Origin: a virus
Taxonomy: Duplodnaviria; Heunggongvirae; Uroviricota; Caudoviricetes
Virus record (IMG/VR): IMGVR_UViG_3300029846_000001
Strand: one strand, 5' to 3'
DNA: 64,000 nt
Each line of letters opens with the position of its first letter. Position 1 is the first letter of the stretch. Below the pieces are notes generated by a model. That model did no database searches, had not been told where the DNA came from, and worked only from the letters and a program-made list of their open reading frames with translations. The position numbers were made by a program, and so were the translations under genes. Shown here piece by piece: positions 10,154 to 28,756 of this stretch.

Positions 10154-10155
10154 GT

Positions 10156-10698
10156 ATGAGAAGGAGATACGAAGATGTTTCAGGTCTTGTTCAGTATCAG
10201 TTGAAGACCAATCAGCAGGGGAATATAGAGGTTTATGTTGATGACAGGTTTGTTGGAAACGTAAGTGAAGGAGTCTGCAATTGGAAGGATATTGAATACA
10301 AGAGCAAAGTTACTATATCTTTGAAAGGAGTCGAGGATAAGGCTAAAACTTTAAGTAAAAGAGTCGGTCCCTATTGTCACATTTATAGCATATTTGGAGG
10401 AAATGAATCTTATCATGAAGGTCCGGATAGTAATATAAAAAAGAGTCCGGTTACCACCTTTATAATGTATTGTTATAAAAATGGGGATATTACAACTACC
10501 ACCACTTATACTAAAAATTTATCTGGAACTCTTCAGATAGGTAAAACACAATTGACTATCAATTACAAACAAAGTAAAAGTCAGTCTTTTTCTGGTGGTG
10601 ATAAAGATTATGTAACATCCGTATCTGATTTCCCTTTTGTTACTGGTCCAGGAGATAATAGCGTTGAGTTTGAAGGAGAGGGAAGATTAATAGTTTAA
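10156..10698 (+). CDS. small protein with MRRRY N-terminus (MRRR-leader family member 1)
   Basis: ATG 3 nt after stop of 2213-aa gene; ORF track lists GTG start at 10147; N-terminus MRRRYEDVSG shared with three other genes. Confidence 0.6.
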   Translation: MRRRYEDVSGLVQYQLKTNQQGNIEVYVDDRFVGNVSEGVCNWKDIEYKSKVTISLKGVEDKAKTLSKRVGPYCHIYSIFGGNESYHEGPDSNIKKSPVTTFIMYCYKNGDITTTTTYTKNLSGTLQIGKTQLTINYKQSKSQSFSGGDKDYVTSVSDFPFVTGPGDNSVEFEGEGRLIV

Positions 10699-10774
10699 AC
10701 AAAGGCTTCGCATTATGAAATAGAAGTTTCATAATTTCTATTTTTATAGTATTTTGTCTAAAATATTTATCACT

Positions 10775-10801
10775 ATGGGTGTCAAATGTCAGATAGAAAA
10801 A
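10775..10801 (+). repeat. direct repeat of the first 27 nt of the 752-aa gene (atgggtgtcaaatgtcagatagaaaaa; second copy 11425-11451)
   Basis: Identical 27-mer at 10775 and 11425; at 10775 it is fused to the copy of the 3' end of the 2213-aa gene, a recombination junction. Confidence 0.8.
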
Positions 10802-10802
10802 T

Positions 10803-10866
10803 AAGAATCTCGTAGAAGGTTCTGATAATTCGGATTCGATAAATAAGTTAAACAAGGAGTGTTGAG
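10803..10866 (+). repeat. direct repeat: near-identical copy of the last 64 nt of the 2213-aa gene (10090-10153), preserving the reading frame (NKNLVEGSDNSDSINKLNKEC*) but preceded by TAG
   Basis: aagaatctcgtagaaggttctgataattcggattcgataaat(g/a)agttaaa(t/c)aa(a/g)gagtgttgagtatgagaaggagat present at 10090-10170 and 10800-10880. Confidence 0.85.
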
Positions 10867-10867
10867 T

Positions 10868-11398
10868 ATGAGAAGGAGATTTTTTAATGCTGCGGATAAT
10901 TTTATGGGAGGATGTTATAATAAGTTATCCAATGAAGATATAAAAAGGCTTGGAGGAAAAAGACCTTATGTATGTCAGTTTAATAAAATTCATATACATA
11001 TAGGACCTGTATTAAAAGATCATGATTCTGATGTTAGTTACATAATGTTTAATAGTAATTGGAATCAAGGTGGTTATGAATCTATGGTTTATAATCATAG
11101 CAATAATGGTATTTTTATATTAGGTGAAAACAAAATTGGTAACATAGAAGATCATATACAAGATCTAACATATTGGTACGAATATGATCCAAGCATTAAT
11201 GAAAATTATTGTTATTTTTATTATGAGGCTAATAACAGCGGAAATGCTATCAAGTTGAATGGTGAGTTTGGTGATACCAGTACTGTTTTCAACATTCCCA
11301 GCTTGGAAGTCACCACTCTTCGTGATGGCAGTTTGAGTTTTCCGGAGATTTATATAGAAGGAATTTGGGATCCGTCATTGTATAAGTCGGTTTTATAA
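10868..11398 (+). CDS. small protein with MRRRF N-terminus (MRRR-leader family member 2)
   Basis: ORF (track start 10859 is GTG; ATG at 10868); N-terminus MRRRFFNAAD; preceded by duplicated 3' end of the upstream giant gene, so a tandem paralog or cassette of 10156-10698. Confidence 0.6.
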   Translation: MRRRFFNAADNFMGGCYNKLSNEDIKRLGGKRPYVCQFNKIHIHIGPVLKDHDSDVSYIMFNSNWNQGGYESMVYNHSNNGIFILGENKIGNIEDHIQDLTYWYEYDPSINENYCYFYYEANNSGNAIKLNGEFGDTSTVFNIPSLEVTTLRDGSLSFPEIYIEGIWDPSLYKSVL

Positions 11399-11424
11399 TT
11401 AACTTTGCAAAAAAGTTAATTACA

Positions 11425-13683
11425 ATGGGTGTCAAATGTCAGATAGAAAAAAAGGAAAATGAAATAAAACGGGTTAAGGCTCCTAACGGGGAGCCTTCCG
11501 TTCTTTACGAAAGTGCTTTAAAAGTATTAGGAAACAGCGAGCGGGCCCTTCAGGTATGGGCTAAGGCTTACACTCCTGGTTTTTTGTCGTATTACGGTCA
11601 TTGGAATAACCCGGCTCCAGGGGAGATGTTTAACACCGATCCCAATGGCGAACCTCTTTTAGAAGATGTGCTGTCGTATATGAAGCGTCAGACTTATTTT
11701 GCTGATCCTTTAACGGCTCAGGATGTTAAGGATGTAAGGGATTTCCTTTTGTCTACTCATTATTTTTTCAATGCGTCTTCATTGTCTAATGCTATTCTCT
11801 TCGATTTTTATGTAGATGGCAGTTTGATACTGAATGAGCAGAAATTAAGGAGATCCGGTTTGTATGATGAAACAGAAATAAGTCGTATTTTATCCGATCC
11901 TTCTGTTTTAAACGAGGTTTCGACTTCCATGAGAAAGTTAATAGATTCTTCTATTAACGAACATGATAGGGAAAAGGATAATTATTTTATGTCTGTTGAC
12001 TATCAGTATGGTCCTATTGTTTACAAGGAGGGAGTGTTTAACCAATTTGGTAAAAAAGTACCATATAATCCTTCTGAGCTTTATTGGGCTATGGGCAAAA
12101 CAGTAGCCGGCATAAAAAACTTTTCTGAATTTTCATCTGCTTTTGAATCGTTGAGAAACTCATACCCTGAACTGGTTGAGAAATTCGTTTCTGATAAAGA
12201 ATTTGCCGAATCTATGTTTGATGAGTTCTCATCTACGAATAAGATTCCGGTAATAAACATAGAAGGGGATGATGTGGTAGAAGGCAAGAGAAGATCCTTG
12301 TCTAAGCTACAAGATCTGTCTTATTACAATCCTGGCAAAATAGAGTTCCTAAGAGCTCGTATATCAGCTTATTTACATAGGGCTAATGCCGACACCGAAT
12401 CCGATTTAAGAAGCATGATATGGGATATAGAAGAGGCTTGTACGTGGTTTGGCATAGATATAATAGGGACATCGGAAACTTATGATGGCACAGAAGAATC
12501 TTTGAATAAGATAGATAATTTGATGCTGGATCTTGATATTTATGTGGCCAGGCATAATGATGTAAATTATGCTCCAACGCTGGCATCTTCTATAGATGAT
12601 GTTCTTGGTGATAGTACAGACTATTATTTTGGATTATTGCCGGAGTATATGGATAATTTGAATATCGTTTATTCTGAATCCGATATAGACCCAGTAGAGG
12701 CATTTGAGAAACATTCATTGCTTAAGGTAGGAGATAATCTATATCAAAGGATCAGCAAAGATGATCTTAACGAGATGTATCAAATATCAACAGTATTAGC
12801 CAAGCACAACCTAACTCATTTTTCTACTAAAATATATCCTGAATCTTGTTTTAAGAACGGCGTTTTGGATAAAGAGAAAGTACGGAACGTAGATGATAAT
12901 ACGCTCATGGCTTCCATTAAAAAATACGTCAGATCGTTCATGGATTCTCAGAACACAGAGGACATGATAATGACCAGGATGGCGTTTGGGCACCCTGCGG
13001 TACTTGACGTTCCTTACGTGGATGTGGATCGGGAGTATAGTCGATACATGAACAAAAAACAAGATAGCGAAAACCCATTATCCTTATTCGATTTATACCA
13101 ATCTTACCTTGACAACAAACTCCATAAAACAAAATTATATGATAATGCCTATAAGTATCTTGACTTCAAACCTGGTCCATCTTTGGGTCTTATTTCTGAT
13201 GATCCTGATATTTTGAAATCAATAGAATTATCTTTATCTGGAAAAGACAGGTTGATGTTGTTTGATTATAGCATGACCAGTACCGACCCTTCTTTATCAG
13301 AATTGTTTTATTTGGAGAGGTATGACCCTTCGTATGCTGGGAATGATTTTGAACACTATTTTTACACCAGGCACCCGTATTTGTTAAAAGAAAAATCGGG
13401 TTCTAATATCGTAGAGCAAGATGGTGTTATAACAGCAGAAGGTATTTATGATAATTTTATAAGAGTAGGTAATAAGATATGGTCTAAAGTAAGCGAGAGT
13501 AGTTCCGGCTCTATCTACCAAAATCTGACAGGAACCGAATCGGAGGTGAAATACGATTCTACTCAGAAGGCTAAGACGGTAGAAACTGATTACGCTCCAT
13601 ACCAAAACAGATCTGGCTTGACGCAAGACATGACCGTAAGCAAGTCTGAATTGGATGATCTTAACAAATTGGAATGCAGGTAA
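11425..13683 (+). CDS. hypothetical protein, 752 aa (structural-block protein)
   Basis: 752-aa ORF, co-directional with the giant genes, followed by a hairpin terminator. Confidence 0.75.
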   Translation: MGVKCQIEKKENEIKRVKAPNGEPSVLYESALKVLGNSERALQVWAKAYTPGFLSYYGHWNNPAPGEMFNTDPNGEPLLEDVLSYMKRQTYFADPLTAQDVKDVRDFLLSTHYFFNASSLSNAILFDFYVDGSLILNEQKLRRSGLYDETEISRILSDPSVLNEVSTSMRKLIDSSINEHDREKDNYFMSVDYQYGPIVYKEGVFNQFGKKVPYNPSELYWAMGKTVAGIKNFSEFSSAFESLRNSYPELVEKFVSDKEFAESMFDEFSSTNKIPVINIEGDDVVEGKRRSLSKLQDLSYYNPGKIEFLRARISAYLHRANADTESDLRSMIWDIEEACTWFGIDIIGTSETYDGTEESLNKIDNLMLDLDIYVARHNDVNYAPTLASSIDDVLGDSTDYYFGLLPEYMDNLNIVYSESDIDPVEAFEKHSLLKVGDNLYQRISKDDLNEMYQISTVLAKHNLTHFSTKIYPESCFKNGVLDKEKVRNVDDNTLMASIKKYVRSFMDSQNTEDMIMTRMAFGHPAVLDVPYVDVDREYSRYMNKKQDSENPLSLFDLYQSYLDNKLHKTKLYDNAYKYLDFKPGPSLGLISDDPDILKSIELSLSGKDRLMLFDYSMTSTDPSLSELFYLERYDPSYAGNDFEHYFYTRHPYLLKEKSGSNIVEQDGVITAEGIYDNFIRVGNKIWSKVSESSSGSIYQNLTGTESEVKYDSTQKAKTVETDYAPYQNRSGLTQDMTVSKSELDDLNKLECR

Positions 13684-13721
13684 TTTTTGTATATATATAG
13701 TTTTTTCATAGTTATAATTTG

Positions 13722-13756
13722 GGAAGTGAGGCTTGTGAAAGTCTCACTTTTCTTAT
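13722..13756 (+). terminator. putative Rho-independent terminator (aagtgag / ctcactt stem followed by a T-run)
   Basis: 7-bp inverted repeat 13724-13730 / 13743-13749 followed by ttttcttat, 40 nt after the stop of the 752-aa gene. Confidence 0.4.
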
Positions 13757-13903
13757 ATATGCACGTATATCAATAACATACAAGAAAAGTTAGATTTTCA
13801 TTGTTTATGAATTATTTTTATTAAGTTTGCAATATTAGTTTCAGGAAGGGATTATGGAAATAAGGAAAAAGTAAGAACCGAACGTAACTAATAACAGTAG
13901 GAA

Positions 13904-14101
13904 ATGAGAATCAGTACCATCAAACGTAACAACAGCATTCATCTTATGTATAAAAACATTATGAATGATTTAGGTCAATTAAGAACTGTAGTTTCAAAAT
14001 CCTATATTTATAATCTGATACAAAATCAAACCGGATTAAGTATCAGAACTATATCCCATGTCTTGAATCACACAAAAGAACAGGATACAGATTCTTTGTG
14101 A
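13904..14101 (+). CDS. small putative helix-turn-helix DNA-binding protein (65 aa)
   Basis: Segment SKSYIYNLIQNQTGLSIRTISHVLNH resembles a classic HTH; sits alone in a 700-bp AT-rich intergenic island. Confidence 0.3.
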   Translation: MRISTIKRNNSIHLMYKNIMNDLGQLRTVVSKSYIYNLIQNQTGLSIRTISHVLNHTKEQDTDSL

Positions 14102-14183
14102 AAGGCATACATTTTCCTACATTTGTGTGTTCTTTAGTTTTTAGATTTAAGTTTTTCATGGTATTAGTTTAGATTAGTGTAGA

Positions 14184-14222
14184 TCAGGGCTCGCAGTGAT
14201 GCGGGCCCTGGTTTGATTTAAA
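14184..14222 (+). terminator. putative terminator hairpin (cagggc...gccctg) followed by a weak T-run
   Basis: GC-rich 6-7-bp stem cagggctcgcagtgatgcgggccctg, then gtttgattt. Confidence 0.3.
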
Positions 14223-14388
14223 AAGTATTAAAATATTTGCTATTTAAAATCCTGTTCCTATCTTTGCTCCAGAAACAATGAACAACGAGATCCCACCTCT
14301 GGTTGTTTGATGTTGAAAGATATTTTTGGCTCATTAGGGTTTGTCATAGTGGGATCTGACATTCTCTTTTGGGCCTATTTTTTTTATC

Positions 14389-14964
14389 ATGGATAAAGTT
14401 TCTGTTTTTGAAAGTTCGGATTTTGGAGAGCTTAGAATTATTGTAGATCCAAAAGGAGATGTTTGGTTTGTGGCGTCAGATGTGGCTAAATCTCTTGGAT
14501 ATATAAATGCTAAAGATGCGGTAAAAAGACATGTAGATGATGATGATTCTATGCTTTTGCAAGTATCTGATAATCAATGGGGCGTAAAACGATCTATATT
14601 GAAAACCAGATATATAGATAGTATAAGAATAATTAATGAATCTGGTTTATATTCTCTTATATTATCTTCAAAATTAGAGTCTGCTAAGAGATTTAAGAAA
14701 TGGGTAACATCTGAGGTTCTTCCTTCTATTCGTAAAACAGGAGAATATAAAACAAGTTCCGGTGGAAAGGGAATTTTGGTCCCTGACTTTTCTAATCCGG
14801 CAGATGCAGCAAGAGCCTGGGCTGATCAATATGAAGCTGCTCAAAAAGCTATAGCCGAAAAGTCGCAGGCAGAGGCAGAAGCCGTCGTTCTGATGGGACG
14901 TACATGGAGTACGGACATGGGTTCCTTCCTCCTTATGATCATTACGGTATGCATGAGAAGATGA
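14389..14964 (+). CDS. Bro-N / KilA-N-like domain protein (phage antirepressor-like)
   Basis: GELRIIVDPKGDVWFVASDVAKSLGY ... SGLYSLILSSKLESAKRFKKWVTSEVLPSIRKTGEY matches the Bro-N family N-terminal domain; the C-terminus appears to change frame (see 14856-15170). Confidence 0.7.
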   Translation: MDKVSVFESSDFGELRIIVDPKGDVWFVASDVAKSLGYINAKDAVKRHVDDDDSMLLQVSDNQWGVKRSILKTRYIDSIRIINESGLYSLILSSKLESAKRFKKWVTSEVLPSIRKTGEYKTSSGGKGILVPDFSNPADAARAWADQYEAAQKAIAEKSQAEAEAVVLMGRTWSTDMGSFLLMIITVCMRR

Positions 14965-15170
14965 AGGAAATGGAAGAACGCGAAAACGAGCTGGAAGAAA
15001 GGGAAAGAAGGCTCGAAGAGCGCGAACGTCGTCATGAAATGGAGGACCGGGAATACCGGAGGATGGGTTACGAATCCTACCCGACCGATTACTATGGAGA
15101 CGACAGATACTACGGTGACGGACCTCAGATGCGTAGAGGTCGCGGACGTGGCAGAGGTCGTTCTTATTGA
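14856..15170 (+). CDS. Glu/Arg-rich and RG-repeat C-terminal segment in the -1 frame relative to Bro-N (possible frameshifted C-terminal extension)
   Basis: The frame is open from 14856 (PKVAGRGRSRRSDGTYMEYGHG...) through EERENELEERERRLEERERRHEMEDREYRR ... RRGRGRGRGRSY*; it overlaps the last 36 codons of the Bro-N ORF; locally GC-rich. Confidence 0.35.
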   Translation, partial: RKVAGRGRSRRSDGTYMEYGHGFLPPYDHYGMHEKMKEMEERENELEERERRLEERERRHEMEDREYRRMGYESYPTDYYGDDRYYGDGPQMRRGRGRGRGRSY

Positions 15171-15263
15171 GGAGCAGACGCAGAGGATCCAGCTTATCAG
15201 AAATATGTAGATACTTACGGCTACCATTTTTCTAATGCTCTCGCTGATGAGGCGGTAAAGAAG

Positions 15264-15557
15264 ATGGTCAACGTCGATGGATCCAAGAGGATCTGGAAGC
15301 AGCCGGAAATAAAAGATATTTTTGAAAAGTGCGGAGCGAAGAAGCCGGATAAAGCGACATGGGGCGATGTCCAATATGTCTTTGCAATGTACTATTCGGA
15401 TGGTTTTCCGAAGGTCTTCAAATGTGAGAACGAGTTGGTGAAAGCTACGTTAATGTATTTGGATGATCCGGATGCTCCCGAAGGAGTAGCCTTTATAAGA
15501 TGGCTTGCCGTGCAAGATTACCTCGGCGAAAAAATAAACTGGAAGGATCTGACCTGA
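15264..15557 (+). CDS. hypothetical protein, 97 aa
   Basis: ORF in a co-directional island, followed by a terminator-like hairpin. Confidence 0.45.
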   Translation: MVNVDGSKRIWKQPEIKDIFEKCGAKKPDKATWGDVQYVFAMYYSDGFPKVFKCENELVKATLMYLDDPDAPEGVAFIRWLAVQDYLGEKINWKDLT

Positions 15558-15918
15558 GATCCAGATCCAGGTCCTTCCGGTGGTGCGGGAGCCATAGTAA
15601 AAAATATGATTCCCGCATTCCCGTTTTTCCCGTTTGGAAAAAAAGGAATAAAAATATTATACCGGTCGGCGGGCAATAGAATACCCGTGGCCGGTTTGTT
15701 TCACATAACTTTTTTTTGACATGAATATAGCACACGAATCTAAATCGAATAAAACCCCATTGTATTTAATAGGAGAGTTGATTGGCGTACCGAATACGGT
15801 TATGGACTCAGCATTGCATGAACTGAGAGATAGAATAGACAAAGACCCTAAATATAAAGATGTTAAAAATTGGCTCGAGTCTTTACCCAAGATCTGAACC
15901 TGTTTTTTCAATACCAGG

Positions 15919-15950
15919 CCCGATGCGATTTTAACGTATCGGGTTTTTAT
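15919..15950 (+). terminator. putative Rho-independent terminator (cccgat...atcggg followed by ttttta)
   Basis: 6-bp stem 15919-15924 / 15938-15943 followed by a T-run. Confidence 0.4.
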
Positions 15951-16023
15951 TTTAATTCATATTGTTTTATTTCAAATCTAATTAATTCATGAATGTCGTA
16001 CATTTGTTGAAAAAGTATTTTTT

Positions 16024-16251
16024 ATGGAAAATAAGGAAGATTACGTTGGTTACGAAGATCAAGAACTGTGTAACCGGTATTACAAAGAGGCTGAAGCCAT
16101 GAGACAAAAGCAGGACTGGTCTCGGCTTAGGGCTGTCCCTGCTCCGGCTAAGGGAACGCCATCGCCCGGCTGGGGTCAGCTTGGACGTGGAAATGGTGTC
16201 AGTGTTAAGTACGTTAGCATCAATTCAGGATTAGGAGGGGACAGATTATGA
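16024..16251 (+). CDS. hypothetical protein, 75 aa
   Basis: ORF; 4-nt overlap (ATGA) with the next ORF suggests coupling. Confidence 0.35.
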   Translation: MENKEDYVGYEDQELCNRYYKEAEAMRQKQDWSRLRAVPAPAKGTPSPGWGQLGRGNGVSVKYVSINSGLGGDRL

Positions 16252-16463
16252 CTGTAGAAGAATTGGCTAATAAAAGATACGGTGGCGAATTTGTTTTCAT
16301 GTTTGGTCATCTTGAAGGTAGAACAAGATTCGTTTTTGAATGCTTTGATCCAAGACCTGATCATGAAGGTAAAAACACTTATATAGTTTCTTATTTTGAT
16401 AAGGGACTTCGTAGAAGAGATGTGGTAGATGTGCCATGTTATATGAATGTTTTAGCAAAATAA
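16248..16463 (+). CDS. hypothetical protein, 71 aa
   Basis: ORF coupled to the upstream ORF. Confidence 0.4.
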   Translation: MTVEELANKRYGGEFVFMFGHLEGRTRFVFECFDPRPDHEGKNTYIVSYFDKGLRRRDVVDVPCYMNVLAK

Positions 16464-16483
16464 ATTAAAATATTGTAAATATC

Positions 16484-17119: not shown

Positions 17120-17142
17120 TAACAATTAATTTAAAACAAATC

Positions 17143-18006
17143 ATGGAATTAAAAGATTTTAAAGATGTGGTTAGAGTAATGACAAAAGAAGAGTTCGAAT
17201 CAACAATCGAAGAAGATATTAAATTCGTTGAGGGATTCAAGAATTTCTTAAAACATGATGATGCCACGAGGATAGTAGAGCATATCAAGTCTGTGTTAGA
17301 AGCATCAGTAGATTATTACTATCCTAATCATCCTGAAGTAGAATTTGAAAAAGATTTTAATATACAATACGATGTCAATAATATCTTGAACAAATACGGC
17401 CACACCGAAATGGGTATGTATAAAATACAGCTCTATATAGAGAATATTTTGGGTAGTATTCAAAACAAGAAGCCTGTAGACGTGGGAGAAGTCTCTGACG
17501 GATACCACACTTTCAATGAATTGTATCGGTATCGCATGTTGTATAACGCTGCCTTCTTTAATCTATTAGCCAGAAACGGACAGGTTGAAGTTTGCAAATC
17601 AAGGAGACACAGCGACGGAGAAAAATGCTTCGGTTCTGATGATTGGTTTATTGTGATGGCGATCCTACCTACCGGTCAGGTATCTAATCACTATGAAAGC
17701 AAATACTGGGATTTGTTTGATGTTCCTGAAAGAGAAACTGCTTTCGAATACGATGGCCATACACCAAATGAAGCTGCCGACAGACTTAAAAAGTATCTCA
17801 AATTGCCTCGTCGTGGCATGACATTCGAACAGGCTTTAGAACGGCTTAAATTAGGTCGTAAGATAAAAAGAATCGATTGGGGTAAAAAGTATATCTGTAT
17901 GTTTGACGTAAATATATTGATGGTAGATACAGGTCAAAAAGTAGCATCAAATTGGAATCCAACCGAACATGATATTATGTCTAATGACTGGGAGATTGCG
18001 GGATGA
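17143..18006 (+). CDS. hypothetical protein, 287 aa
   Basis: ORF; C-terminal W/K-rich segment (MTFEQALERLKLGRKIKRIDWGKKYICMFD...DWEI) of unknown function. Confidence 0.55.
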   Translation: MELKDFKDVVRVMTKEEFESTIEEDIKFVEGFKNFLKHDDATRIVEHIKSVLEASVDYYYPNHPEVEFEKDFNIQYDVNNILNKYGHTEMGMYKIQLYIENILGSIQNKKPVDVGEVSDGYHTFNELYRYRMLYNAAFFNLLARNGQVEVCKSRRHSDGEKCFGSDDWFIVMAILPTGQVSNHYESKYWDLFDVPERETAFEYDGHTPNEAADRLKKYLKLPRRGMTFEQALERLKLGRKIKRIDWGKKYICMFDVNILMVDTGQKVASNWNPTEHDIMSNDWEIAG

Positions 18007-18042
18007 GTTTGTATATCCGAAATAACATTAAAACAATATAAT

Positions 18043-18268: not shown

Positions 18269-18297
18269 TTGAATAAACATTAAAAACGTTTGTAGAT

Positions 18298-19518
18298 ATG
18301 GTGTACGTACAAGACATAAATGGTAAACCTTTGATGCCCACAACAAGGCATGGTAAGGTTAGACGACTGCTTAAAGACAAAAAGGCAGTTGTTGTAAACC
18401 TATGTCCGTTTACCATCAAATTAATGTACGTTACATCTGATTACAAACAGGAAATTGTTTTAGGCGTTGATGCTGGAACTAAACATGTTGGTCTATCAGC
18501 AACGACGAAAAGCAAAGAACTTTACAGCAGTGAAGTAATTCTTAGAAATGATATCGTAGATCTTTTGTCTACCAGAAGAGAGCTACGGAAAGCAAGACGG
18601 AACAGGTTAAGATATAGAAAACCTCGTTTTGATAACAGAGTAAAAAGCAAGCGTCTAGGATGGATAGCACCTTCGGTGAAATACAAAGTAGACGCCCATA
18701 TTCGTGTTGTTGAAAATGTTTGCTCTATATTACCAATATCTCGTATTGTTATTGAAGTAGCTCAATTCGATACTCAAAAGATTAAGAATCCTGAGATATC
18801 AGGTAAAGAATACCAGGAAGGTGATCAACTTGAGTTGTGGAACACAAGGGAGTATGTTTTAGCAAGAGATGGACATAAATGCCAGTATTGTAAAGGCAAG
18901 TCAAAAGATTCTATACTGAATGTTCATCATATTGAGTCTCGAAAAACCGGAGGGGATTCCCCTTCTAATCTTATAACTTTATGTGAAACATGTCACAAAG
19001 AATACCATAAAGGTAATATAGATTTAAAGATCAGAAGAGGCAAGTCGCTTCGCGACGCAGCCGTAATGGGAATTATGAAATGGAGGTTGTATGAAGAGTT
19101 AAAATCCAGATACGACAGAGTTTTTATGACGTTTGGTTACATTACGAAACATAATCGGATTAAATATGGGATTGAAAAATCCCATACATCCGACGCGTTT
19201 GTCATTTCTAAGAATATTAATGCGAAACGAATCGAACGTCAATATTTAAAACGTTTAATTCGTAGACATAATAGACAAATACATAAAATGAAAATTTTAA
19301 AAGGGGGGAAGAAGAAAAACAATCAAGCTCCTTTTGAGGTTTTCGGTTTTAGGTTGTTTGATAAAGTGTTGTATAACAATAAAATATTCTTTGTTTATGG
19401 AAGGAGAAAATCAGGGAGTTTCAATATCAGGGATTTCAACGGAGAAAATTCAAAAGATGTTTCACGCAAAAAGTTTAAACTCATTAGAGGGAAGAGGCAT
19501 CCGATTATATTAAAGTAA
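18298..19518 (+). CDS. iscB: IscB, an OMEGA-system RNA-guided nuclease (IS200/IS605-associated Cas9 ancestor), 406 aa
   Basis: PLMP motif (DINGKPLMPTTRHGK); RuvC-I (LGVDAGTKHVGLS); Arg-rich bridge helix (RRELRKARRNRLRYRKPRF); RuvC-II (IVIEVAQFD); HNH (CQYCKG...NVHHIESRKTGGDSPSNLITLCETCHKEYH); RuvC-III (KSHTSDAFVIS). Confidence 0.85.
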   Translation: MVYVQDINGKPLMPTTRHGKVRRLLKDKKAVVVNLCPFTIKLMYVTSDYKQEIVLGVDAGTKHVGLSATTKSKELYSSEVILRNDIVDLLSTRRELRKARRNRLRYRKPRFDNRVKSKRLGWIAPSVKYKVDAHIRVVENVCSILPISRIVIEVAQFDTQKIKNPEISGKEYQEGDQLELWNTREYVLARDGHKCQYCKGKSKDSILNVHHIESRKTGGDSPSNLITLCETCHKEYHKGNIDLKIRRGKSLRDAAVMGIMKWRLYEELKSRYDRVFMTFGYITKHNRIKYGIEKSHTSDAFVISKNINAKRIERQYLKRLIRRHNRQIHKMKILKGGKKKNNQAPFEVFGFRLFDKVLYNNKIFFVYGRRKSGSFNIRDFNGENSKDVSRKKFKLIRGKRHPIILK

Positions 19519-19861: not shown

Positions 19862-19878
19862 CTAAAAAACAAAACAAC

Positions 19879-20552: not shown

Positions 20553-20570
20553 GTTATCCGACTTTTTTAT
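20539..20570 (+). terminator. putative Rho-independent terminator (agtcgg...ccgact followed by tttttta)
   Basis: 6-bp stem overlapping the stop codon, followed by a T6 run. Confidence 0.45.
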
Positions 20571-20581
20571 ATATTTGTGGC

Positions 20582-20905: not shown

Positions 20906-20958
20906 GCTGAACTTGACGATTTTTCGTCAGATTATAATTTTTTTATCATATCATTTTT

Positions 20959-20997
20959 AAGCCATCAGACTGAGAAGTTAGATGGCTTTATTTTTTA
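20959..20997 (+). terminator. putative Rho-independent terminator (aagccatc...gatggctt followed by tattttttat)
   Basis: 8-bp perfect stem 20959-20966 / 20981-20988 followed by a T-run. Confidence 0.5.
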
Positions 20998-21048
20998 TGA
21001 TATGCTTGATTTTTAACTACCTTTGTCTCATAACAAAAATGTTTTATC

Positions 21049-24000
21049 ATGGTATCAACGTGTATTATTAAAAGAGATAATAAAAAGAAAGTTGTTTCTG
21101 TCTCTACCAGATCAGGGGACAGGTCTATGTTGTTTGATAAGATAGCATCTATTCCTCTTATGGAGAACAGGGAACGGGCTACTACTGTTTTTAAAACCGT
21201 ATTTTCCAACAAGTTCTTAAAGGCTTTTGGCGACTGGAGAAAGAGAGTGCCTATCAACAAACAGGCTTATAATAAGGTAAAATCCAACATCGATCTTATC
21301 CCAGAAGCCTACAGAGAAAGGGTGCTGGATAAGGCTTCTAAGATGAGTAACCCTGTTCTTGTGTCAAAATCAGATGCACCTTATGAAATCCGAGAATCGG
21401 GCTTTGGATTTTACAGCCAAGATCTGGGTGATAATATTATGTTGGTAGATGCTATGGTCCCGTCAAGTATTTCCGTACCGGAAGAACCAGGAATAGACGC
21501 CGGGCAGTATTTACAAGATGCTATATCTTCGGACTTCACTCCCGTATCTGTGGTACAGGATAAGGGTGTTAATTATATGGTTATAAAAGACGGTCTTAAG
21601 ATATTTAGCCCAGAGGAGTTACCAGAAACAGATTCTAATCCTGTGGGTGTAACGTATCAGACCGGAGAGCCTCGTTTGTTTTTCATGAACGATCGTAGTC
21701 AATTATTTGAAGATTACGGAGAAGCTCTTCGCTCTGGCGGGAATGATATCAGAATAGGGTTCTTATCAGGCACCGTTCAGGAATCTGCCGTGGATGGCGT
21801 GGCAGACATTACTTACAAAGCTGGAAAGTATGTTCTTAATAATCTCAAATCTTTTATACCGGTCATGACCGCTTCTGCTTCTACTTCTTTATCAACAAAA
21901 GGTGGTATAATTAACTACCTTATAAAGAAAGGTCTTTTGTCCGGATCTAAGATATTCGATTCTGAAACAAGAAGCTATTATCTTACAGGAGAAGGTCATA
22001 CAGGACAAATTAGACTTTTCAATTCAGCCTTATCATACACCGAGCTCCGTAATCATTTTGGTTCCGATGTTTCCATGAACGACCAAGGTATGATAACCAT
22101 AAGCTCGTTGGATAATAGTAAGGTAACTATGAGACTCGCCACCGGAGGAACGGAAAGGGTTAGCAAAGAGCAGATAAAGAACGATCTTAAGTCGGGAAGA
22201 TACAATGAATTGGACGCCAAGTACGATCATTTTGATGCGCTTGTAGTTTCATTCATATTAGAAGACAACGATCTTTACGCTGATACTAAAGCTAAGATCG
22301 TATCAGATTATAGCAGGCAGGAACGTGATCAACGAAATTCTATTGTCGAGATACTGAAAACTCTTGGCGTTAGTGTCATAGGTATGACCGATTATATAGA
22401 GAAGTACCAAACCAAATACGGGCATGAACCTTCTGCTAAGGCATTGGCGGATATTGCCAATAACGTAATAGCAGTTGGTGAAGATGCTACTTTATCTGAT
22501 TTAGTAGAAGAAACAGCCCACTTCCTTGTAGAGGCATACAGAGATCAGAATGCTGTTGAGGCTGTTCTGCAAGATGTAGAAGGTACGGAAGAGTGGAACC
22601 AGTATGCAGGTCAGTATTATAATACATACGGTAAAGCGTATGAAGGAGCTGAGCTTGATAATGCTGTTAGGAGAGAAATTCTTGGAAAGATCCTCGCCAG
22701 GGAGATGCAGACCGGCACAGCACAGGCGCCGGTAGAGCCCACCTCCTTCCTGGGGCGCGTCCGGCGGCTTTTCTCTGGAATAGTAAGCTGGCTTAAATCA
22801 GCTTTATCAACCCAAAGACAAGATTTGAATAACGTTATTAAAAACATTCGTGATCTTGCCATTACTGACATAGATAAAGGATTTGACACTTCTCTGTTAA
22901 AGGATAATGACTTTACATTATACTCCCTTTCTTCTATGAACAAGAACAAGTTTCTTGAGTCTAAGATCAGATCGCTAAGAAAAACATTAAGAGACTTACG
23001 TCAGATAAGCTCTGATAGGGCTGTAACTACGTCTATGACCCTTGCGCAGCTTAAGACCATAGAAGATAAGATAAATAAGGTAGAGACCGAAATAGACAAG
23101 AATGAGATGGCGGCTGCCATGAACAGCATGATCTCTACAGCCGAAGCTCAGGTCAGATACTTAAGCAATGTGGTGAACACCATCCTTCATGGTGATACCA
23201 AAGACGGCAAGCTTCATTTCAATACCAATGATCGAAAGAACGTAGATATTATCAACAATCAGGTTCTTCCGATCATGAACGATCTTCGAGGATATATCCG
23301 TAACAGAAGTACCGAATTTGATGAACGTGAAAAGCAGGATTATACAAATAGGATCAATACCGTCATTGCCGACATCAATGGTATTCAGTCTGATATTAAA
23401 TCAGTACAAGACCTTGATGAAAGCACGTTGCTTGATAAGTTAATGAACGAACTTCATGTGCCGGCAGATAAGGTAAAGAGAGTAAAAGAATTTTTCGACA
23501 AGGTTCAACACGATGTTTCTTGGATAAGTAGGTGGTTTGGTATATTAGAGCATTCTTCCAGTCCGTTCAATAACGCTCTTGGAGCTATGATTGCCAAAGA
23601 CAATTACAATGCGATGGTGAATGCCCAGCCCGCCATATCCGATTTCCTGGCATATGCGAAAAAGCATGGTTTTAACAAATCTGAATTTGAAAAACTGCTT
23701 CAGAAAGTAGATGGCAAAACTTCTAATTACCTTCGTAGTGCTCTTGATATGGCTAAATACGATCGTAATAAGAAGCTGGCGCAGATGCGAGCGTTTGCGA
23801 CTGCCATGAACATAGAGATATCAGAAGAAGAAATTGGTGATGTGGTTGACAATAACCGTAATTACGTATTTAAAAGAGAAGTAGTTGACAAGGATGGAAA
23901 TACGGTTACTGAAAACGCTAAATTCAAACCATCGTCTGATAGAGTTAATACCGATATTTTTACCATCGAGCAGGAAAAGATCTATACAGAGCAGATGGAA

Positions 24001-27000
24001 AAGTGGGATGCTGAAAATTCGGAACTGGAATTTAGCGAAAGTTATGCCACAAGAATGGAATCCATATACAAAAAGGCTGAAGAAGAATTAGGGCATCCGG
24101 TTTCTCAAACAACCAAAGAATACCTTAATGCTCTATCCAGGCAAAAACGGATATTGAGGCAGCCTTTTATTGATAGCGGTGGTAATTTTGATGAGGTTGC
24201 CTATTTTAAAAGCAGCAATTACGAAGAAGAAGGACTGCTTCGTAAACAACGTAAGGAAGCAGCTTCAGAATACATATATGTAGGAACCAGGAGAGTGGAA
24301 AAAACCGGCGACCAACTTAAGATGGCTAAAGAAATACAAGCTATAAATGAAGTTTGGAGAAAGGAATCAAATAATGTTACCAATGCCGTATCAGAATCGT
24401 TTTTGCAAAAATTAAGAACGATTCAGAGCGAGTCGGGAGGAGAAGCTGCGCTGAAGACACTTATGTTGGGAGGTCACCTGTCGTTCAATGATCGGTTTTG
24501 GAATGAAGTAGAATCGGAACAGTCGGCGCGTACCGAATCAAATAACAAGGCTTCGTATCTTAAAATGGCGCATGATATCATTAGTTCTACGACAAGTGAT
24601 AGAGATGCGACTGACGTGGATTCGATTGTGAAAGATATAGAAAAAAATAAGGCCATTATCAAGGAAATAATCGGAAACAACCGAGATGTGGCTGATATCG
24701 GAGAAATTAACGAAGCGACATTTACCTCATCTGAAAGAGATGCTTTTAGGGCCGCATCTGAAGCTATTGAAGCTGATTACGCTATCTTAATAGATTATGC
24801 TAAGATGGTGGGTCTTGAAGATATTGATAAGTACCTTACTAAAAGCAGTAAGGCCGAAAACGAAGTAAATCAGTCTTATTTAAATGCTCTTGCTGACTCC
24901 AAGGAAGTGGAATGGAAGTTCGTACAACGTCATACTACGGCGAAGAAAGCAAAAAGGATTCAGGCTTTAAGGGATAAGCTGTTTAAGGCTGCTGATAACC
25001 GATATCTGTTTACCGTATCTGAAACCAACTACCTGTCAGAAAAGCTTGGTATAAGCAAAGAATTAGACGGTAGAGATTTCAGGAATGCTGTTAATGCTAA
25101 GATGGCCAGCTTGTTTTTAAATAATACAAGAGAAGAGGGCATAGAAGAGACCAATGCTATTGTTAATGAATTTGCCAGGAGCCAGGTCTTTTCGTACTAT
25201 AAACGCATGGCGCCTACCGGATATGCGGCCATGATCGACAAAATAGGTCGAGGTGAGATAGATGTGGCGCAGATGGTTAAGGACGTACAAAACGGTACAT
25301 CCACCCAAGATTATGGCATGGACATATCGTACCTGTCTTTCGACCCTGCAAGGGCATGGGTGGCTGAATCTGAAGCCGAAAATAGCGGTCGTAATCCTGA
25401 TTATGTAAAAGATCATGGGTATGGTCATCGCATGCCTAAGAAAAGCCTGTATCGTGATGAATCGTATCTCAATGACTTTGGTATCAAGTATGATGCTGAC
25501 GGTAATGAAGTTGCTACTAAAAACGTAGAGCAGTGGAATATGATTCAAAAACTCAAGGAAATAAAAAGACAATCCCTTGATCTATACAAAGAGCAGAGTC
25601 CCAATTTGTATGCTATTCCACAGATATCAAAACAAGACATAGAACGTATGGAAGGATTGGGTATTAACTTCAAAAATACGGTTCGTAATTTTGTATCAGA
25701 TCTGTGCCTGGACAGAGTAGACGATTCTCTATATGGTAAGACCAGGCAAGGGGAAGTATATGATCCGGAAGACAGACTTAGGTCTATACCTAAATACTAC
25801 ATATATGAGTTGGAGAACCAAGATGATGTATCTCACGATTTTGGCTACTCTTATTCGATGCTTATGATGCAGTCATCGTTATATAACGAAAAGCAGAAGT
25901 CTATAGAGCTTGCCCAAGGACTGGAGCAGATGTTACTGAATAAACAATTTGAAGGCGGTAAGAAGGCTGAAGCAACCCAAGCATATCAGATGTTCAGGGA
26001 CTTCTTCAACGATCATTATTATGGCATTAGGATGAACACCAAAAAACTTACGGTGAACATCGGAGGATATACGGTAGACCTTACAAGAATTATGATGGCT
26101 GTTGAAAGATTTATGTCGGTTATGAACTTGGCACTGTCTCCGTTTGTGGCAGCTACCGGCGCCCTGACAGGTCATATCAACCTCATCATGGAATCTGCCG
26201 TAGGACAGTATATAAGCAAAGACTCCCTTAAATACGCATCGGCTGAGTTTTCACGTCTTGCGCCATCTTGTATAGCAGAAACCGGAGACATAGATAGGAA
26301 AAGCAAATTATATGTCATAGGTGAGAGAATGGGGATATTCAATATCCGAAATCGTATGTATGGTGCCGGATACAATAGAGCAGCCAGGACCTTAATGCGT
26401 TCGCCTATGTATGCTTTTATGGAAATCCTGAACTACCCTCTTGATCCGCAGGTTATGATTGCTACTATGGACAATGTTCGTTATTACAAAGGCCGGTTCT
26501 ATACGTTCCAAGATTTCAAGATGGAAAAAGAACGTAATAAAGAACAGAGTACCATAAAAAGAGAATGGAACGCATTAAAAGATCGTACTTTATGGAGTAT
26601 GGTAGATGTCGTGGATGGGAAGGTGGTTGTAAAGCCCGGATCGGGTGTTACTGTTGAGGAAGTTGAAACCCAGATGGCTATAACCAGAAATCAGGTTCGT
26701 AGCTTGTCACAGATATGTAACGGATCTTTGAATGAAGAAAACCGAACTGCCGCATCGCGCAACTGGATAGCCAGGTTCATGACCGCCCACCGAGGATGGT
26801 TGGTGCTGGCGGCTCAACGTCTGTGGAAAAGACGTGGCTTCAATTTCCAGACAATGCAAGAAGAGGAAGGGTTGTCAATTACGTTAAAGAATATGATAGC
26901 CAAAACATTTAGCCTGGCTTCCGAGTCTGGTATGAAAAACATCATAGATGCCTGGAACGAAAATAAAGACAATATGAATGAGGTAGAAAAAACTAATCTC

Positions 27001-27471
27001 AAACGCCTCAGTGTCTATGCCGGCACGTTTCTTATCATGCAAGCCGTATCTATGCTTCTTGCCGGATGGCGTGATGATGATGAAAACGAAGAAAGTTGGC
27101 TTACTCAATTTGGATCCTATGTCGGATTCAGAACCATAAACGAAATAGCTTCACAGATGCCGTTTATTATGGAGCTTAACGTGGTAGATATCATTAACGA
27201 TCCGTTTGTTATGGGGCGAAAACTGAAGGATCTTACCGATCTTAGGAATTATTCACTTGATAAAGTAACATCCGGTACATACAAGGGAGAGTCTAAGTTA
27301 TTTAGGCAACTCGCCAAACAGACGTTTATCAAACAATGGTATAATATCAAGACGCCGGAAGACGTAGCGCGCGCCTATAATTGGTGGCAGCAGACGAACA
27401 ACAAGTCAATGATGTTCTTCATCGGCGCTACTCCTGATTCGGAAGGGGACGATGATGTTAGCTACAAGTAG
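21049..27471 (+). CDS. giant hypothetical protein, 2140 aa (virion/tail/ejected protein; coiled-coil-rich, hydrophobic C-terminal segments)
   Basis: 2140-aa uninterrupted ORF; long helical/coiled-coil stretches; C-terminal hydrophobic helices (TFLIMQAVSMLLAGW); followed by a strong terminator. Confidence 0.85.
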   Translation: MVSTCIIKRDNKKKVVSVSTRSGDRSMLFDKIASIPLMENRERATTVFKTVFSNKFLKAFGDWRKRVPINKQAYNKVKSNIDLIPEAYRERVLDKASKMSNPVLVSKSDAPYEIRESGFGFYSQDLGDNIMLVDAMVPSSISVPEEPGIDAGQYLQDAISSDFTPVSVVQDKGVNYMVIKDGLKIFSPEELPETDSNPVGVTYQTGEPRLFFMNDRSQLFEDYGEALRSGGNDIRIGFLSGTVQESAVDGVADITYKAGKYVLNNLKSFIPVMTASASTSLSTKGGIINYLIKKGLLSGSKIFDSETRSYYLTGEGHTGQIRLFNSALSYTELRNHFGSDVSMNDQGMITISSLDNSKVTMRLATGGTERVSKEQIKNDLKSGRYNELDAKYDHFDALVVSFILEDNDLYADTKAKIVSDYSRQERDQRNSIVEILKTLGVSVIGMTDYIEKYQTKYGHEPSAKALADIANNVIAVGEDATLSDLVEETAHFLVEAYRDQNAVEAVLQDVEGTEEWNQYAGQYYNTYGKAYEGAELDNAVRREILGKILAREMQTGTAQAPVEPTSFLGRVRRLFSGIVSWLKSALSTQRQDLNNVIKNIRDLAITDIDKGFDTSLLKDNDFTLYSLSSMNKNKFLESKIRSLRKTLRDLRQISSDRAVTTSMTLAQLKTIEDKINKVETEIDKNEMAAAMNSMISTAEAQVRYLSNVVNTILHGDTKDGKLHFNTNDRKNVDIINNQVLPIMNDLRGYIRNRSTEFDEREKQDYTNRINTVIADINGIQSDIKSVQDLDESTLLDKLMNELHVPADKVKRVKEFFDKVQHDVSWISRWFGILEHSSSPFNNALGAMIAKDNYNAMVNAQPAISDFLAYAKKHGFNKSEFEKLLQKVDGKTSNYLRSALDMAKYDRNKKLAQMRAFATAMNIEISEEEIGDVVDNNRNYVFKREVVDKDGNTVTENAKFKPSSDRVNTDIFTIEQEKIYTEQMEKWDAENSELEFSESYATRMESIYKKAEEELGHPVSQTTKEYLNALSRQKRILRQPFIDSGGNFDEVAYFKSSNYEEEGLLRKQRKEAASEYIYVGTRRVEKTGDQLKMAKEIQAINEVWRKESNNVTNAVSESFLQKLRTIQSESGGEAALKTLMLGGHLSFNDRFWNEVESEQSARTESNNKASYLKMAHDIISSTTSDRDATDVDSIVKDIEKNKAIIKEIIGNNRDVADIGEINEATFTSSERDAFRAASEAIEADYAILIDYAKMVGLEDIDKYLTKSSKAENEVNQSYLNALADSKEVEWKFVQRHTTAKKAKRIQALRDKLFKAADNRYLFTVSETNYLSEKLGISKELDGRDFRNAVNAKMASLFLNNTREEGIEETNAIVNEFARSQVFSYYKRMAPTGYAAMIDKIGRGEIDVAQMVKDVQNGTSTQDYGMDISYLSFDPARAWVAESEAENSGRNPDYVKDHGYGHRMPKKSLYRDESYLNDFGIKYDADGNEVATKNVEQWNMIQKLKEIKRQSLDLYKEQSPNLYAIPQISKQDIERMEGLGINFKNTVRNFVSDLCLDRVDDSLYGKTRQGEVYDPEDRLRSIPKYYIYELENQDDVSHDFGYSYSMLMMQSSLYNEKQKSIELAQGLEQMLLNKQFEGGKKAEATQAYQMFRDFFNDHYYGIRMNTKKLTVNIGGYTVDLTRIMMAVERFMSVMNLALSPFVAATGALTGHINLIMESAVGQYISKDSLKYASAEFSRLAPSCIAETGDIDRKSKLYVIGERMGIFNIRNRMYGAGYNRAARTLMRSPMYAFMEILNYPLDPQVMIATMDNVRYYKGRFYTFQDFKMEKERNKEQSTIKREWNALKDRTLWSMVDVVDGKVVVKPGSGVTVEEVETQMAITRNQVRSLSQICNGSLNEENRTAASRNWIARFMTAHRGWLVLAAQRLWKRRGFNFQTMQEEEGLSITLKNMIAKTFSLASESGMKNIIDAWNENKDNMNEVEKTNLKRLSVYAGTFLIMQAVSMLLAGWRDDDENEESWLTQFGSYVGFRTINEIASQMPFIMELNVVDIINDPFVMGRKLKDLTDLRNYSLDKVTSGTYKGESKLFRQLAKQTFIKQWYNIKTPEDVARAYNWWQQTNNKSMMFFIGATPDSEGDDDVSYK

Positions 27472-27607
27472 ACGAAGAATATCGGACTTGCATTGTTTTT
27501 GTATGATTCCAATATGCTATATTAGCATCGTCAAAGAGTAGATTGTACGTTTTTTGTTCTTACTTGAAAGATTATGTAGGTTTAATTTTTTCTGAAATTG
27601 TTTTCTT

Positions 27608-27650
27608 ACCGGTTCTCAGTCATAGATGATAGGGAACCGGTTTCTTTTAT
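27608..27650 (+). terminator. Rho-independent terminator (accggttc...gaaccggt followed by ttcttttat)
   Basis: 8-bp perfect stem 27608-27615 / 27634-27641 followed by a T-run. Confidence 0.5.
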
Positions 27651-27684
27651 GTTGTCAATTATTGCTATCTTGCAAACAAAAATC

Positions 27685-28099
27685 ATGAGACGAAGATTTC
27701 AAATAGGGATGGGGGGTAAATCCCTCGCTTATAATCAATAAAGGCATATATATCCAACATGTAGACGGAGGATTATATACGAAAGAAAATTGGTCTAATA
27801 AAGGATATTCCAATAATCTATGCAATGGAATAGCTCTTGTAGATAAAGTGTGTTTTGTTATAGCCACCGAATATATTGGCACATTTCGTTGGGGTAAGGA
27901 TGGAGAAATAGACAATATATTTGCACAAGATAGTTCTAATATGGGAACTATTAAAAAGGATTATTGGGGGCGTGAAAATCAGAATGCGTATCTTGAATAT
28001 GATACCAGTAATACAGATTACGCTTTTAATAAAGCTAATAGCTATTTATTTAAAAATGGTCAAAATGGATATGTAGGTGGCGCCGGAGAGTTTTTTTGA
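27685..28099 (+). CDS. MRRR-leader family member 3, split by a G6 homopolymer: MRRRFQIGMGGKSLAYNQ* in frame 1; a -1 shift at 27711-27716 joins it to the 27848-28099 ORF (total about 137 aa)
   Basis: ATGAGACGAAGATTT start like the other family members; a 6-G run immediately after codon 9; the downstream frame is open from a TAG that overlaps the G-run through to 28099. Confidence 0.4.
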
Positions 28100-28302
28100 T
28101 ATCATTGTATGCGAATGAAATAAACGAATGCCTTTTAATGGTAGGAGGTACGATAATGAGTAATAGAATGTGGACATCCACTCGAAATACAAAATTTTCC
28201 TATTCGTGGTATTATGATATAAACATCCAAGGAGACCATTTGGATACAGGTTCAAGGGATAGTTCACATTATGTCCGCCCTTTTACTGAATTAATTTTAT
28301 GA
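28096..28302 (+). CDS. hypothetical protein, 68 aa (TTG start in track; internal ATG possible)
   Basis: ORF only. Confidence 0.3.
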   Translation: MISLYANEINECLLMVGGTIMSNRMWTSTRNTKFSYSWYYDINIQGDHLDTGSRDSSHYVRPFTELIL

Positions 28303-28306
28303 AATT

Positions 28307-28756
28307 ATGAGAAGAAGATTTGAAAATATTAAGACAGTTGCCGGCGTCAAGATCCCTGTTTTTGCTTGTTCGATTTCGGCCCCTACAACCACATGGCGAA
28401 ATCCTGTACCTATTCTTGGTTGTAGATACCGATCTAATGGAGCAACTATGGCGGCTTCCTATGTTTTAGATGAAATTAATAATAGCAAGGTATGTACGAT
28501 GGGCGGTAATCCTATAAGTTGTACGATATCAAATTCTGGACAATATATCCAGGCTTACTTTAATGAAGGACAGGTAACAGGTGATATTATATTACAGTTT
28601 ACGATTGGAGACGTTTTTTATTATTTCTTTATTACAGAAGGATCCAATCAAGTACCTCAACTGAAATTAAGTCCAAGTACTCACCTTATTCATTCAATAT
28701 ATAAGATAAGTACAATTGGCAGCTTTGTCCCTATTGATACCTATGTGGAATTATAA
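28307..28756 (+). CDS. small protein with MRRRF N-terminus (MRRR-leader family member 4), 149 aa
   Basis: N-terminus MRRRFENIKT; Cys-containing, beta-rich composition. Confidence 0.55.
   Translation: MRRRFENIKTVAGVKIPVFACSISAPTTTWRNPVPILGCRYRSNGATMAASYVLDEINNSKVCTMGGNPISCTISNSGQYIQAYFNEGQVTGDIILQFTIGDVFYYFFITEGSNQVPQLKLSPSTHLIHSIYKISTIGSFVPIDTYVEL

Follow-up and report, generated by a model that had tools for sequence, protein, structure and literature searches.

A shared MRRR(F/Y) N-terminus on exchangeable late accessory genes of an epsilon crAss-like phage

Why should small phage proteins which have no other sequence in common begin with the same five residues? The question is raised by IMG/VR virus record IMGVR_UViG_3300029846_000001, of which a stretch of 64,000 nucleotides (nt), here called the window, was analysed. 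An earlier note on this DNA described four small genes with an MRRR(F/Y) start, otherwise unrelated in sequence and placed directly downstream of two giant structural genes, and suggested that the common start could be a peptide which targets proteins to the capsid or virion, or else an export motif. The four genes and the two giants are the following (aa, amino acids):

3512-10153, + strand: 2213-aa giant virion gene, upstream of array 1; matches phrog_32390 at 2e-54
10156-10698, + strand: MRRR gene 1 (MRRRYEDV allele), 180 aa; its ATG lies 2 nt past the stop codon of the 2213-aa gene
10868-11398, + strand: MRRR gene 2 (MRRRFFNA allele), 176 aa; alternative allele of the gene 1 locus, with a T6 run directly after the motif
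21049-27471, + strand: 2140-aa giant virion gene, upstream of array 2; matches phrog_37651 'virion structural protein' at 2e-76
27685-28302, + strand: MRRR gene 3 (MRRRFQIGMG), 205 aa when intact; inactivated in the window
28307-28756, + strand: MRRR gene 4 (MRRRFENIK), 149 aa; starts 4 nt past the end of gene 3

As far as the comparison of related sequences indicates, these four genes are members of a lineage-specific family of exchangeable late accessory genes in Epsilonunovirus crAss-like phages. The window belongs to an epsilon crAss-like phage: positions 8000-14000 and 26000-29500 are 92.8% and 97.3% identical, respectively, to crAssE-Sib (OR575929.1), a human gut phage of 151 kb for which the genus Epsilonunovirus has been proposed (Babkin et al. 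2024, PMC11054128). Up to about 28.8 kb the genes of the window lie on the + strand, and past this point they lie on the - strand; the 2140-aa gene is the final large gene in the + strand late module. In the whole crAssE-Sib genome, all MRRR starts are located on the late strand and none occurs in the replication module. The terms MRRRF and MRRRY were not found in the literature in a relevant sense, the crAssE-Sib paper (PMC11054128) contains no description of the family, and the family has apparently not been described before.

Within the window, the shared start is specific. The pattern ATGAGAMGRAGATW occurs four times (10156, 10868, 27685 and 28307), always on the + strand, against a mean of 0.01 in shuffled sequence. 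These are also the only sites, across all six frames, at which ATG is followed by codons for RRR. Given the amino-acid composition of the window, some 1e-3 genes in 100 should carry RRR[FY] at residues 2-5 by chance. The four starts described earlier are thereby confirmed, each at its exact position. Hidden paralogy of the four proteins was considered and rejected: after removal of the first 8 residues, BLASTP detects no pairwise similarity among them (E > 1). The same comparison, extended to members of the family found in relatives, shows that only the alleles of 241-245 aa share an N-domain with one another, and that gene 3 bears a weak resemblance to a 218-aa member (E = 0.023).

Is the motif a property of this one genome or of a family? 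For each of three anchor genes, 80 relatives were fetched from IMG/VR (anchors 94-100% identical), which amounts to about 240 loci. In these related loci the motif is found on at least 10 sequence-unrelated protein types, located in three hypervariable arrays whose content varies between genomes with flanking genes 94-100% identical. Array 1 harbors genes 1 and 2 and array 2 harbors genes 3 and 4. Array 3 lies outside the window, immediately ahead of the muzzle giant, with as many as four MRRR genes in tandem. Its members include MSRRRYFEE (153-157 aa), several Gly-rich alleles (247-261 aa; Leu is at position 5 in one of them), MRRRFENVN (169 aa), MRRRFEFDN (218 aa) and, in one genome (L250), an MRRR protein of 772 aa. 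The general form of the motif is M(S)RRR[F/Y/L], with E and N/D frequently next. Members adopt a common layout in which the N-terminal motif and some 10-15 further residues precede a globular, mostly beta-rich domain, and it is this domain which changes between members.

Is it the peptide or the underlying nucleic acid which is conserved? The residues RRR[F/Y] are encoded by AGA AGG AGA TTT, AGA CGA AGA TTT, AGA AGA AGA TTT or AGG CGT CGT TTC/TTT, and further by AGG AGG AGA TTC, CGT AGA CGT TTT or AGA AGG CGT TTT. Amino-acid changes are limited to Lys in place of Arg2 (few copies) and to Phe, Tyr or Leu at position 5. Since the peptide is constant across many synonymous codon sets, selection must act on the protein, and codon comparisons of this kind show the N-terminal pentapeptide to be under purifying selection. 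No common element is seen in the sequences ahead of the start codons, the duplicated flank of genes 1 and 2 excepted; such dissimilar contexts make a shared RNA or DNA signal unlikely. A motif at the RNA or DNA level (a Shine-Dalgarno-like AAGGAG in ATGAGAAGGAGAT, a promoter or a shared leader) was rejected as a candidate, as AGGAG is present in genes 1 and 2 only and the codons vary while the residues are fixed. Promoter and terminator scans gave nothing above the shuffled expectation.

The motif is also a point of recombination. In two loci (L143 and L107), the DNA upstream of gene 3 and its characteristic CGA-containing motif are joined to the body of gene 4 or to the body of a 245-aa allele. 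The same junction is seen at the protein level in P0101, and P0063 and P0064 are chimeras between MRRR members. Read from the joined sequences, the junction in L143 and L107 is a precise deletion between two 15-nt copies of the motif. Taken together with the arrangement of array 1 described below, these alignments show that the 15-nt motif coding sequence and the conserved flanks provide the homology for stacking and deletion of cassettes.

One may ask whether the common start is an address label at all. It could be a by-product of cassette capture, in which genes are acquired by in-frame recombination behind an existing start region whose codons are kept for initiation or early elongation; the giants would then simply be stable borders which tolerate insertions. 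The deletion junctions inside the 15-nt motif and the frequency of chimeric genes fit such a process, as do the exact end of the repeat of genes 1 and 2 past the MRRR codons and the TnpB elements and RRXRR-HNH endonuclease which land in or near the arrays. However, capture alone leaves unexplained why the residues are fixed when the codons vary widely (AGA, AGG, CGA, CGT; TTT, TTC; TAC, TAT), why members have wholly different sequence ahead of the start, and why the motif is retained in three separate arrays on proteins of 149-772 aa. We consider this explanation unlikely.

How did two MRRR genes come to lie side by side behind the 2213-aa gene? The following features of array 1 are informative:

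10088-10168, + strand: left flank repeat D1, copy 1 (end of the 2213-aa gene, TGA, ATGAGAAGGAGAT); 81 nt, 96% identical to 10800-10880
10800-10880, + strand: left flank repeat D1, copy 2; duplicated 3' end of the giant ahead of gene 2
10775-10804, + strand: stump of the 752-aa gene start (MGVKCQIEK, then stop; nine codons), at the junction of the stacked alleles
11425-13683, + strand: conserved 752-aa gene, right border of array 1; 258 relatives in IMG/VR

The 81-nt repeat consists of the last 66 nt of the 2213-aa gene, the stop and the first 13 nt of the small gene (ATGAGAAGGAGAT), and its boundary falls immediately past the MRRR codons. A second repeat, on the right flank (D2, 10741-10807 and 11391-11457), reproduces the start of the 752-aa gene and has the stump at 10775-10804 as its core. 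Genes 1 and 2 have the 81-nt repeat in common because two alternative alleles of one locus are stacked in tandem. As crAssE-Sib carries gene 1 only at this place and the flanks in the window are duplicated, gene 2 is the second allele of the same locus. It follows that the four genes can be called otherwise unrelated with respect to their proteins beyond residue 8, and not with respect to the DNA of genes 1 and 2, which is not independent.

The start of gene 1, 2 nt after the stop of the giant, suggests translational coupling. Its product measures 180 aa compared to 192 aa in relatives, because a TAA at 10696-10698 replaces the GAA of the relatives and the last 12 residues are lost. Gene 2 qualifies as an ORFan, since HMMER, run exhaustively against 1.84 billion representatives, returned one full-length relative (90% identical) and fragments. 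Neither Pfam nor PHROG gave a match for gene 1, gene 2 or the 752-aa gene. Among the 80 relatives examined at array 1, the majority carry the FFNA allele alone, while the YEDV allele stands alone in crAssE-Sib and in about 17 of the 80. Both alleles are present in the order FFNA-YEDV in six loci, with a junction unlike that of the window, and in the order YEDV-FFNA in the window and in L066. The differently placed junction in L014 indicates that tandem arrays arose more than once. In nine relatives the FFNA allele is followed by a TnpB element (L028:2702-3934, L035, L054, L063-L065, L077, L078 and L081).

Array 2 opens with a further feature, which was read from the sequence:

27608-27641, with a T-rich tail to 27650, + strand: terminator-like hairpin (ACCGGTTC, 18-nt loop, GAACCGGT) between the 2140-aa gene and gene 3

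The hairpin at 27608-27650 was not called by the consensus scanner because its loop is long. Gene 3 begins 213 nt past the 2140-aa gene, beyond this hairpin, and genes 2 and 4 are each preceded by another MRRR gene. A position directly downstream of a giant, as the earlier note had it for all four genes, therefore applies to gene 1 only. Homologues of genes 3 and 4 were found in this phage lineage only, where they are very diverse (56-98% identity). The array contains gene 3 with gene 4, gene 4 alone, or gene 3 with one of several alleles of 235-245 aa (MRRRFENNA, MRRRYQNNA, MRRRYENDI, MRRRFETSL); three tandem MRRR genes of 153, 241 and 244 aa are present in L169. In 14 of 80 relatives the array is empty. 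In the empty state (L090:5200-5260), both genes have been deleted and only the last nine codons of a 242-aa allele (TKQLRYEFK) are left directly behind the hairpin.

Are these genes always functional? In the window, gene 3 is not. An additional G at 27711-27716 (G6) leads to loss of the frame after 18 codons, and the frame is regained through a missing T at 28091-28097 (T7). In crAssE-Sib and many relatives, gene 3 has G5 and T8 runs and encodes an intact protein of 205 aa. The gene assigned to 27685 is thus genuine in relatives and reduced to an open reading frame (ORF) of 18 codons in the window. Frameshifts affect 26 of 55 copies of gene 3, nearly all of them at the G5 and T8 runs: G5 is extended by one in 8 copies and by four in 3, and T8 is longer or shorter by one in 14. 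Breaks are also common in the FFNA allele, in the T6 run after its motif, and in the 245-aa alleles, of which the single copy examined (L168) is broken at a G run. As a control, the adjacent giant gene has A6 and A7 runs, neither of which varies in length in the scorable loci (47-80 per run). These runs are located in the same contigs, so that a generic assembly or sequencing error is an unlikely cause of the frameshifts. As in contingency genes, the tract lies inside the ORF, its length differs among near-identical genomes and the change shifts the frame. The variation of gene 3 may represent reversible phase variation or decay.

What could the peptide do? We tentatively favor, as somewhat less than an even bet, the view that the shared pentapeptide is a docking or assembly tag of the virion, carried by exchangeable surface-binding modules. 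The MRRR proteins would be virion-associated binding modules such as fibre tips, decoration proteins or adhesins. The pentapeptide would attach any of them to one common site on the particle or to a common chaperone, and a phage population could alter the modules it displays with the conserved virion scaffold unchanged. We favor a docking tag because the classifiable members carry domains of the fibre or adhesin type, because the family appears to be expressed late, within the structural module (judged from strand and position), and because variability of this kind is typical for host-interaction proteins.

The domain assignments come mainly from array 3. A Gly-rich member matches Pfam Gly_rich_2 (PF21722) over residues 22-234 with 60.3 bits (cut-off 24.3, E = 3.6e-16), a match that refers to array 3 of the relatives and does not include the four window genes. 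The same member also matches the C-terminal part of a PHROG 'minor tail protein' family (2.7e-6). The 772-aa member of L250 comprises three DUF5977 domains (156 bits, 3e-46) and two BACON domains (45.5 bits, 7e-12), all above the gathering score. As the first recognisable domain of these Gly_rich_2 and BACON/DUF5977 members starts at residue 17-22, tag and linker together would span about 16-21 residues. In the structural model of gene 4, residues 1-16 are disordered and are followed by a beta-sandwich, for which fold searches returned generic immunoglobulin (Ig)-like matches only. For gene 3, the AlphaFold2 model is unusable (predicted local distance difference test score 32). Matches to the lectin-like domain Lcl_C/DUF1566 remain below the gathering score of 34.9 bits both for gene 3 (10.4 bits, E = 0.81) and for the 218-aa member (14.9 bits, E = 0.034).

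The neighbouring giants suggest another destination. The 2213-aa and 2140-aa proteins and a 1019-aa protein of the window match PHROG virion structural families, and they are syntenic with gp39, gp36 and gp40, respectively, of Cellulophaga phage phi17:2, which are annotated as structural or virion structural (gp39 as 'structural protein'). The 2140-aa giant has tblastn matches to phi17:2 gp36 and to cr52_1 gp35. Sequence searches of the PDB with both giants gave no matches. From their position, we infer that the giants correspond to the block for RNA polymerase-associated cargo proteins in PhicrAss001 (PMC10172136). The MRRR peptide could accordingly be a cargo tag, by which small proteins are targeted into the lumen of head or tail together with the ejected giants and are injected as early effectors, for instance of anti-defence, in the manner of T4 internal proteins. 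Such a role would suit unrelated small proteins with a common N-terminus in hyperplastic loci beside giants syntenic with the ejected RNA polymerase-associated block of crassviruses (PMC10172136). Presence/absence polymorphism and rapid turnover fit effectors engaged in an arms race, and most members have no recognisable domain.

However, the members which can be classified have domains of the kind usually seen in external binding proteins (BACON, DUF5977, Gly_rich_2 or Ig-like), and one of them has 772 aa with five binding-type domains. Known crassvirus cargo is alpha-helical and must unfold to fit a tail lumen of less than 50 Angstrom (PMC10172136). A prohead protease or cleavage consensus was not identified, and the structural module of crAssE-Sib has no annotated protease gene. 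Furthermore, array 3 adjoins the muzzle protein, which is external. Cargo targeting is in our opinion improbable. With respect to the earlier proposal of a targeting peptide for virion incorporation, this is a true peptide motif on unrelated late proteins, it recurs in relatives, and it is predicted to be disordered ahead of the gene 4 sandwich, as for a linear tag; the analogy with T4-like capsid cargo is not supported in its specific form.

The earlier note also considered export through a Tat-like RRxF motif. More generally, the start could direct proteins to the host envelope, either as such a Tat-like motif or as the charged n-region of a lipoprotein or Sec signal. RRxF resembles the Tat core S/T-R-R-x-F-L-K, one allele reads MRRRFLIK, and gene 4 contains a weakly hydrophobic stretch ending in VFAC, which is loosely lipobox-like. 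Yet in the model this stretch forms the first strand of the sandwich, and charged residues directly follow the motif (e.g. NRELEDF). The maximal Kyte-Doolittle mean over 12 residues is 0.18-0.62 in four members, namely gene 1, gene 2, the Gly-rich member and the MSRRRY member. Tat, Sec and lipoprotein signals were rejected on hydropathy, as an uncharged h-region, which in Tat signals has about 12-20 residues and precedes a cleavage region, is missing after the motif: the twin arginine is present and the required hydrophobic region is not. An export function is extremely improbable.

Several observations weigh against the docking tag. The earlier note had made its idea depend on recurrence of the motif in homologous phages, and the outcome is divided. 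The motif is present throughout the close clade, including species whose gene 4 homologue is only 59% identical. In contrast, MRRR genes were not detected within the first 50 kb of phi17:2, the Cellulophaga phage with the syntenic giants, in a 50-kb stretch of cr52_1 which includes most of the structural module, or in a 16.6-kb epsilon-like contig with a giant protein 47% identical. As these distant relatives keep the same giants and the motif is absent from their examined parts, the conserved virion scaffold does not need it. In addition, five residues are very short for a docking element. Finally, frequent loss and inactivation imply that the genes are individually dispensable, which also fits anti-defence genes or other non-structural accessory genes.

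The MRRR family seems to be restricted to part of the epsilon group. A search of reference genomes for prophage or host copies returned only an 8.7-kb contig assigned to 'Vibrio olivae' (L252, NZ_JBHMEP010000023.1). It shows 48% identity to the C-terminus of the giant protein and ends inside the gene; this contig may be a contamination or a distant marine relative.

A bolder form of the docking tag would be that MRRR[F/Y], initiated with formylmethionine, is alone sufficient for incorporation of any protein into the particle. The phage would then possess a plug-and-play system in which shuffling at the motif codons and homopolymer on/off switching vary the set of binding or effector proteins on each virion. 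We regard this as rather unlikely.

Do known systems offer a precedent? The internal proteins of T4 (IPI, IPII, IPIII and Alt) carry an N-terminal capsid targeting sequence of about 10 residues, which is cut by the prohead protease at a defined site. They resemble the MRRR proteins in that a short conserved N-terminal peptide is borne by unrelated small proteins at a variable locus with shuffling via conserved flanks, which is also what we find here. In contrast, T4 internal proteins are located inside the head, whereas the classifiable MRRR members look like external binding modules; the sequences of the two motifs are unrelated, and the T4 peptide is removed by the protease. Tail fibres and tailspikes provide a second comparison. 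Their N-terminal anchors (the N-domain of T7 gp17 and those of multi-tailspike phages such as K1-5, SP6 and CBA120) are folded domains of tens to about 150 residues. They too connect variable binding parts to a constant virion site through a conserved N-terminus and are swapped at a conserved border, although attachment is only predicted for the MRRR proteins. The difference lies in the extent: MRRR proteins conserve about 5-7 residues within a segment predicted to be disordered.

The cargo-loading peptides of encapsulins, whose shells have the HK97 fold, would offer a parallel in that a short linear peptide suffices to bring diverse proteins to a binding site on a shell of viral type. They differ from MRRR in that they are usually C-terminal, have another consensus and target the interior of the shell. 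With regard to switching, Campylobacter phages have hypermutable poly-G tracts in receptor-binding protein genes, and bacterial contingency loci behave likewise. In these systems, as is proposed for the MRRR genes, length changes of homopolymers in host-interaction genes turn the gene on or off, and in both cases length variants are common among near-identical genomes. However, the MRRR tracts are G5 and T6-T8, not long poly-G, and the MRRR variants, compared between assembled genomes, may also be fixed pseudogenes.

The closest comparison within the crassviruses is with the head fibres gp21 and gp29 of PhicrAss001, which consist of an N-terminal attachment part and a C-terminal Ig-like sandwich (PMC10172136). 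Both sets are small crassvirus proteins in which an N-terminal part precedes an Ig-like sandwich (for gene 4, in the model only). No sequence similarity between them was found, however, and the MRRR motif is not reported for the head fibres. The authors of the PhicrAss001 study noted that other crassvirus groups are without head-fibre homologues and may use uncharacterised proteins instead (PMC10172136).

Some further features of this lineage are worth recording. In crAssE-Sib, a TnpB/IS605-type element (64017-65413) cuts the MRRRFENVN gene of array 3 to 32 codons, whereas the copy in L173 is intact with 169 aa. Between the two giant genes of the window, positions 18298-19518 (+) encode a 406-aa endonuclease with RRXRR and HNH domains (Pfam E = 5e-61 and 5e-11, respectively), which is probably mobile and of the homing type; crAssE-Sib is without an annotated coding sequence of such size at the corresponding place, and the copy in L169 is positioned elsewhere. 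A 287-aa protein at 17143-18006 (+) has WDGH (1e-36) and Tad2-like (6e-11) domains. The Tad2 domain takes its name from the Thoeris anti-defence protein, and this may be an anti-defence gene of the late region. The + and - strand modules converge at a near-perfect palindrome (28821-28869), whose 22-nt arms are 86% complementary and enclose a 5-nt loop; it probably terminates transcription from both directions. At 14389-14964 (+) a Bro-N domain protein (6.5e-27) is encoded, which fits the anti-repressor-like genes reported for the genus by Babkin et al. (PMC11054128). Lastly, crAssE-Sib has an annotated diversity-generating retroelement (variable region, template repeat and reverse transcriptase; 45751-47816, L083) on a tail-fibre-like gene (PMC11054128). 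Given this element in the sibling genome, the lineage has a mutagenic system for varying binding proteins besides its cassette arrays.

What would a short N-terminal tag on interchangeable accessory proteins mean for these phages? Judged from sequence, the shared N-terminus is a real feature with a clear behaviour at the population level, and its proposed function is plausible. Among the phages of the human gut, crassviruses are the most abundant. To our knowledge, the epsilon crassviruses are uncultured, and we know of little on how crassviruses attach accessory proteins to the virion or vary their contacts with host or mucus. If the docking tag is correct, a minimal peptide would explain how near-identical genomes come to carry different sets of binding proteins, and would point to a docking site or chaperone. 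By means of it, gut phages could also be made to display or package foreign proteins. Should the peptide prove not to be a tag, the three arrays are still clear hotspots of variation among strains, which can serve to track strains and to follow phage-host arms races in metagenomes.

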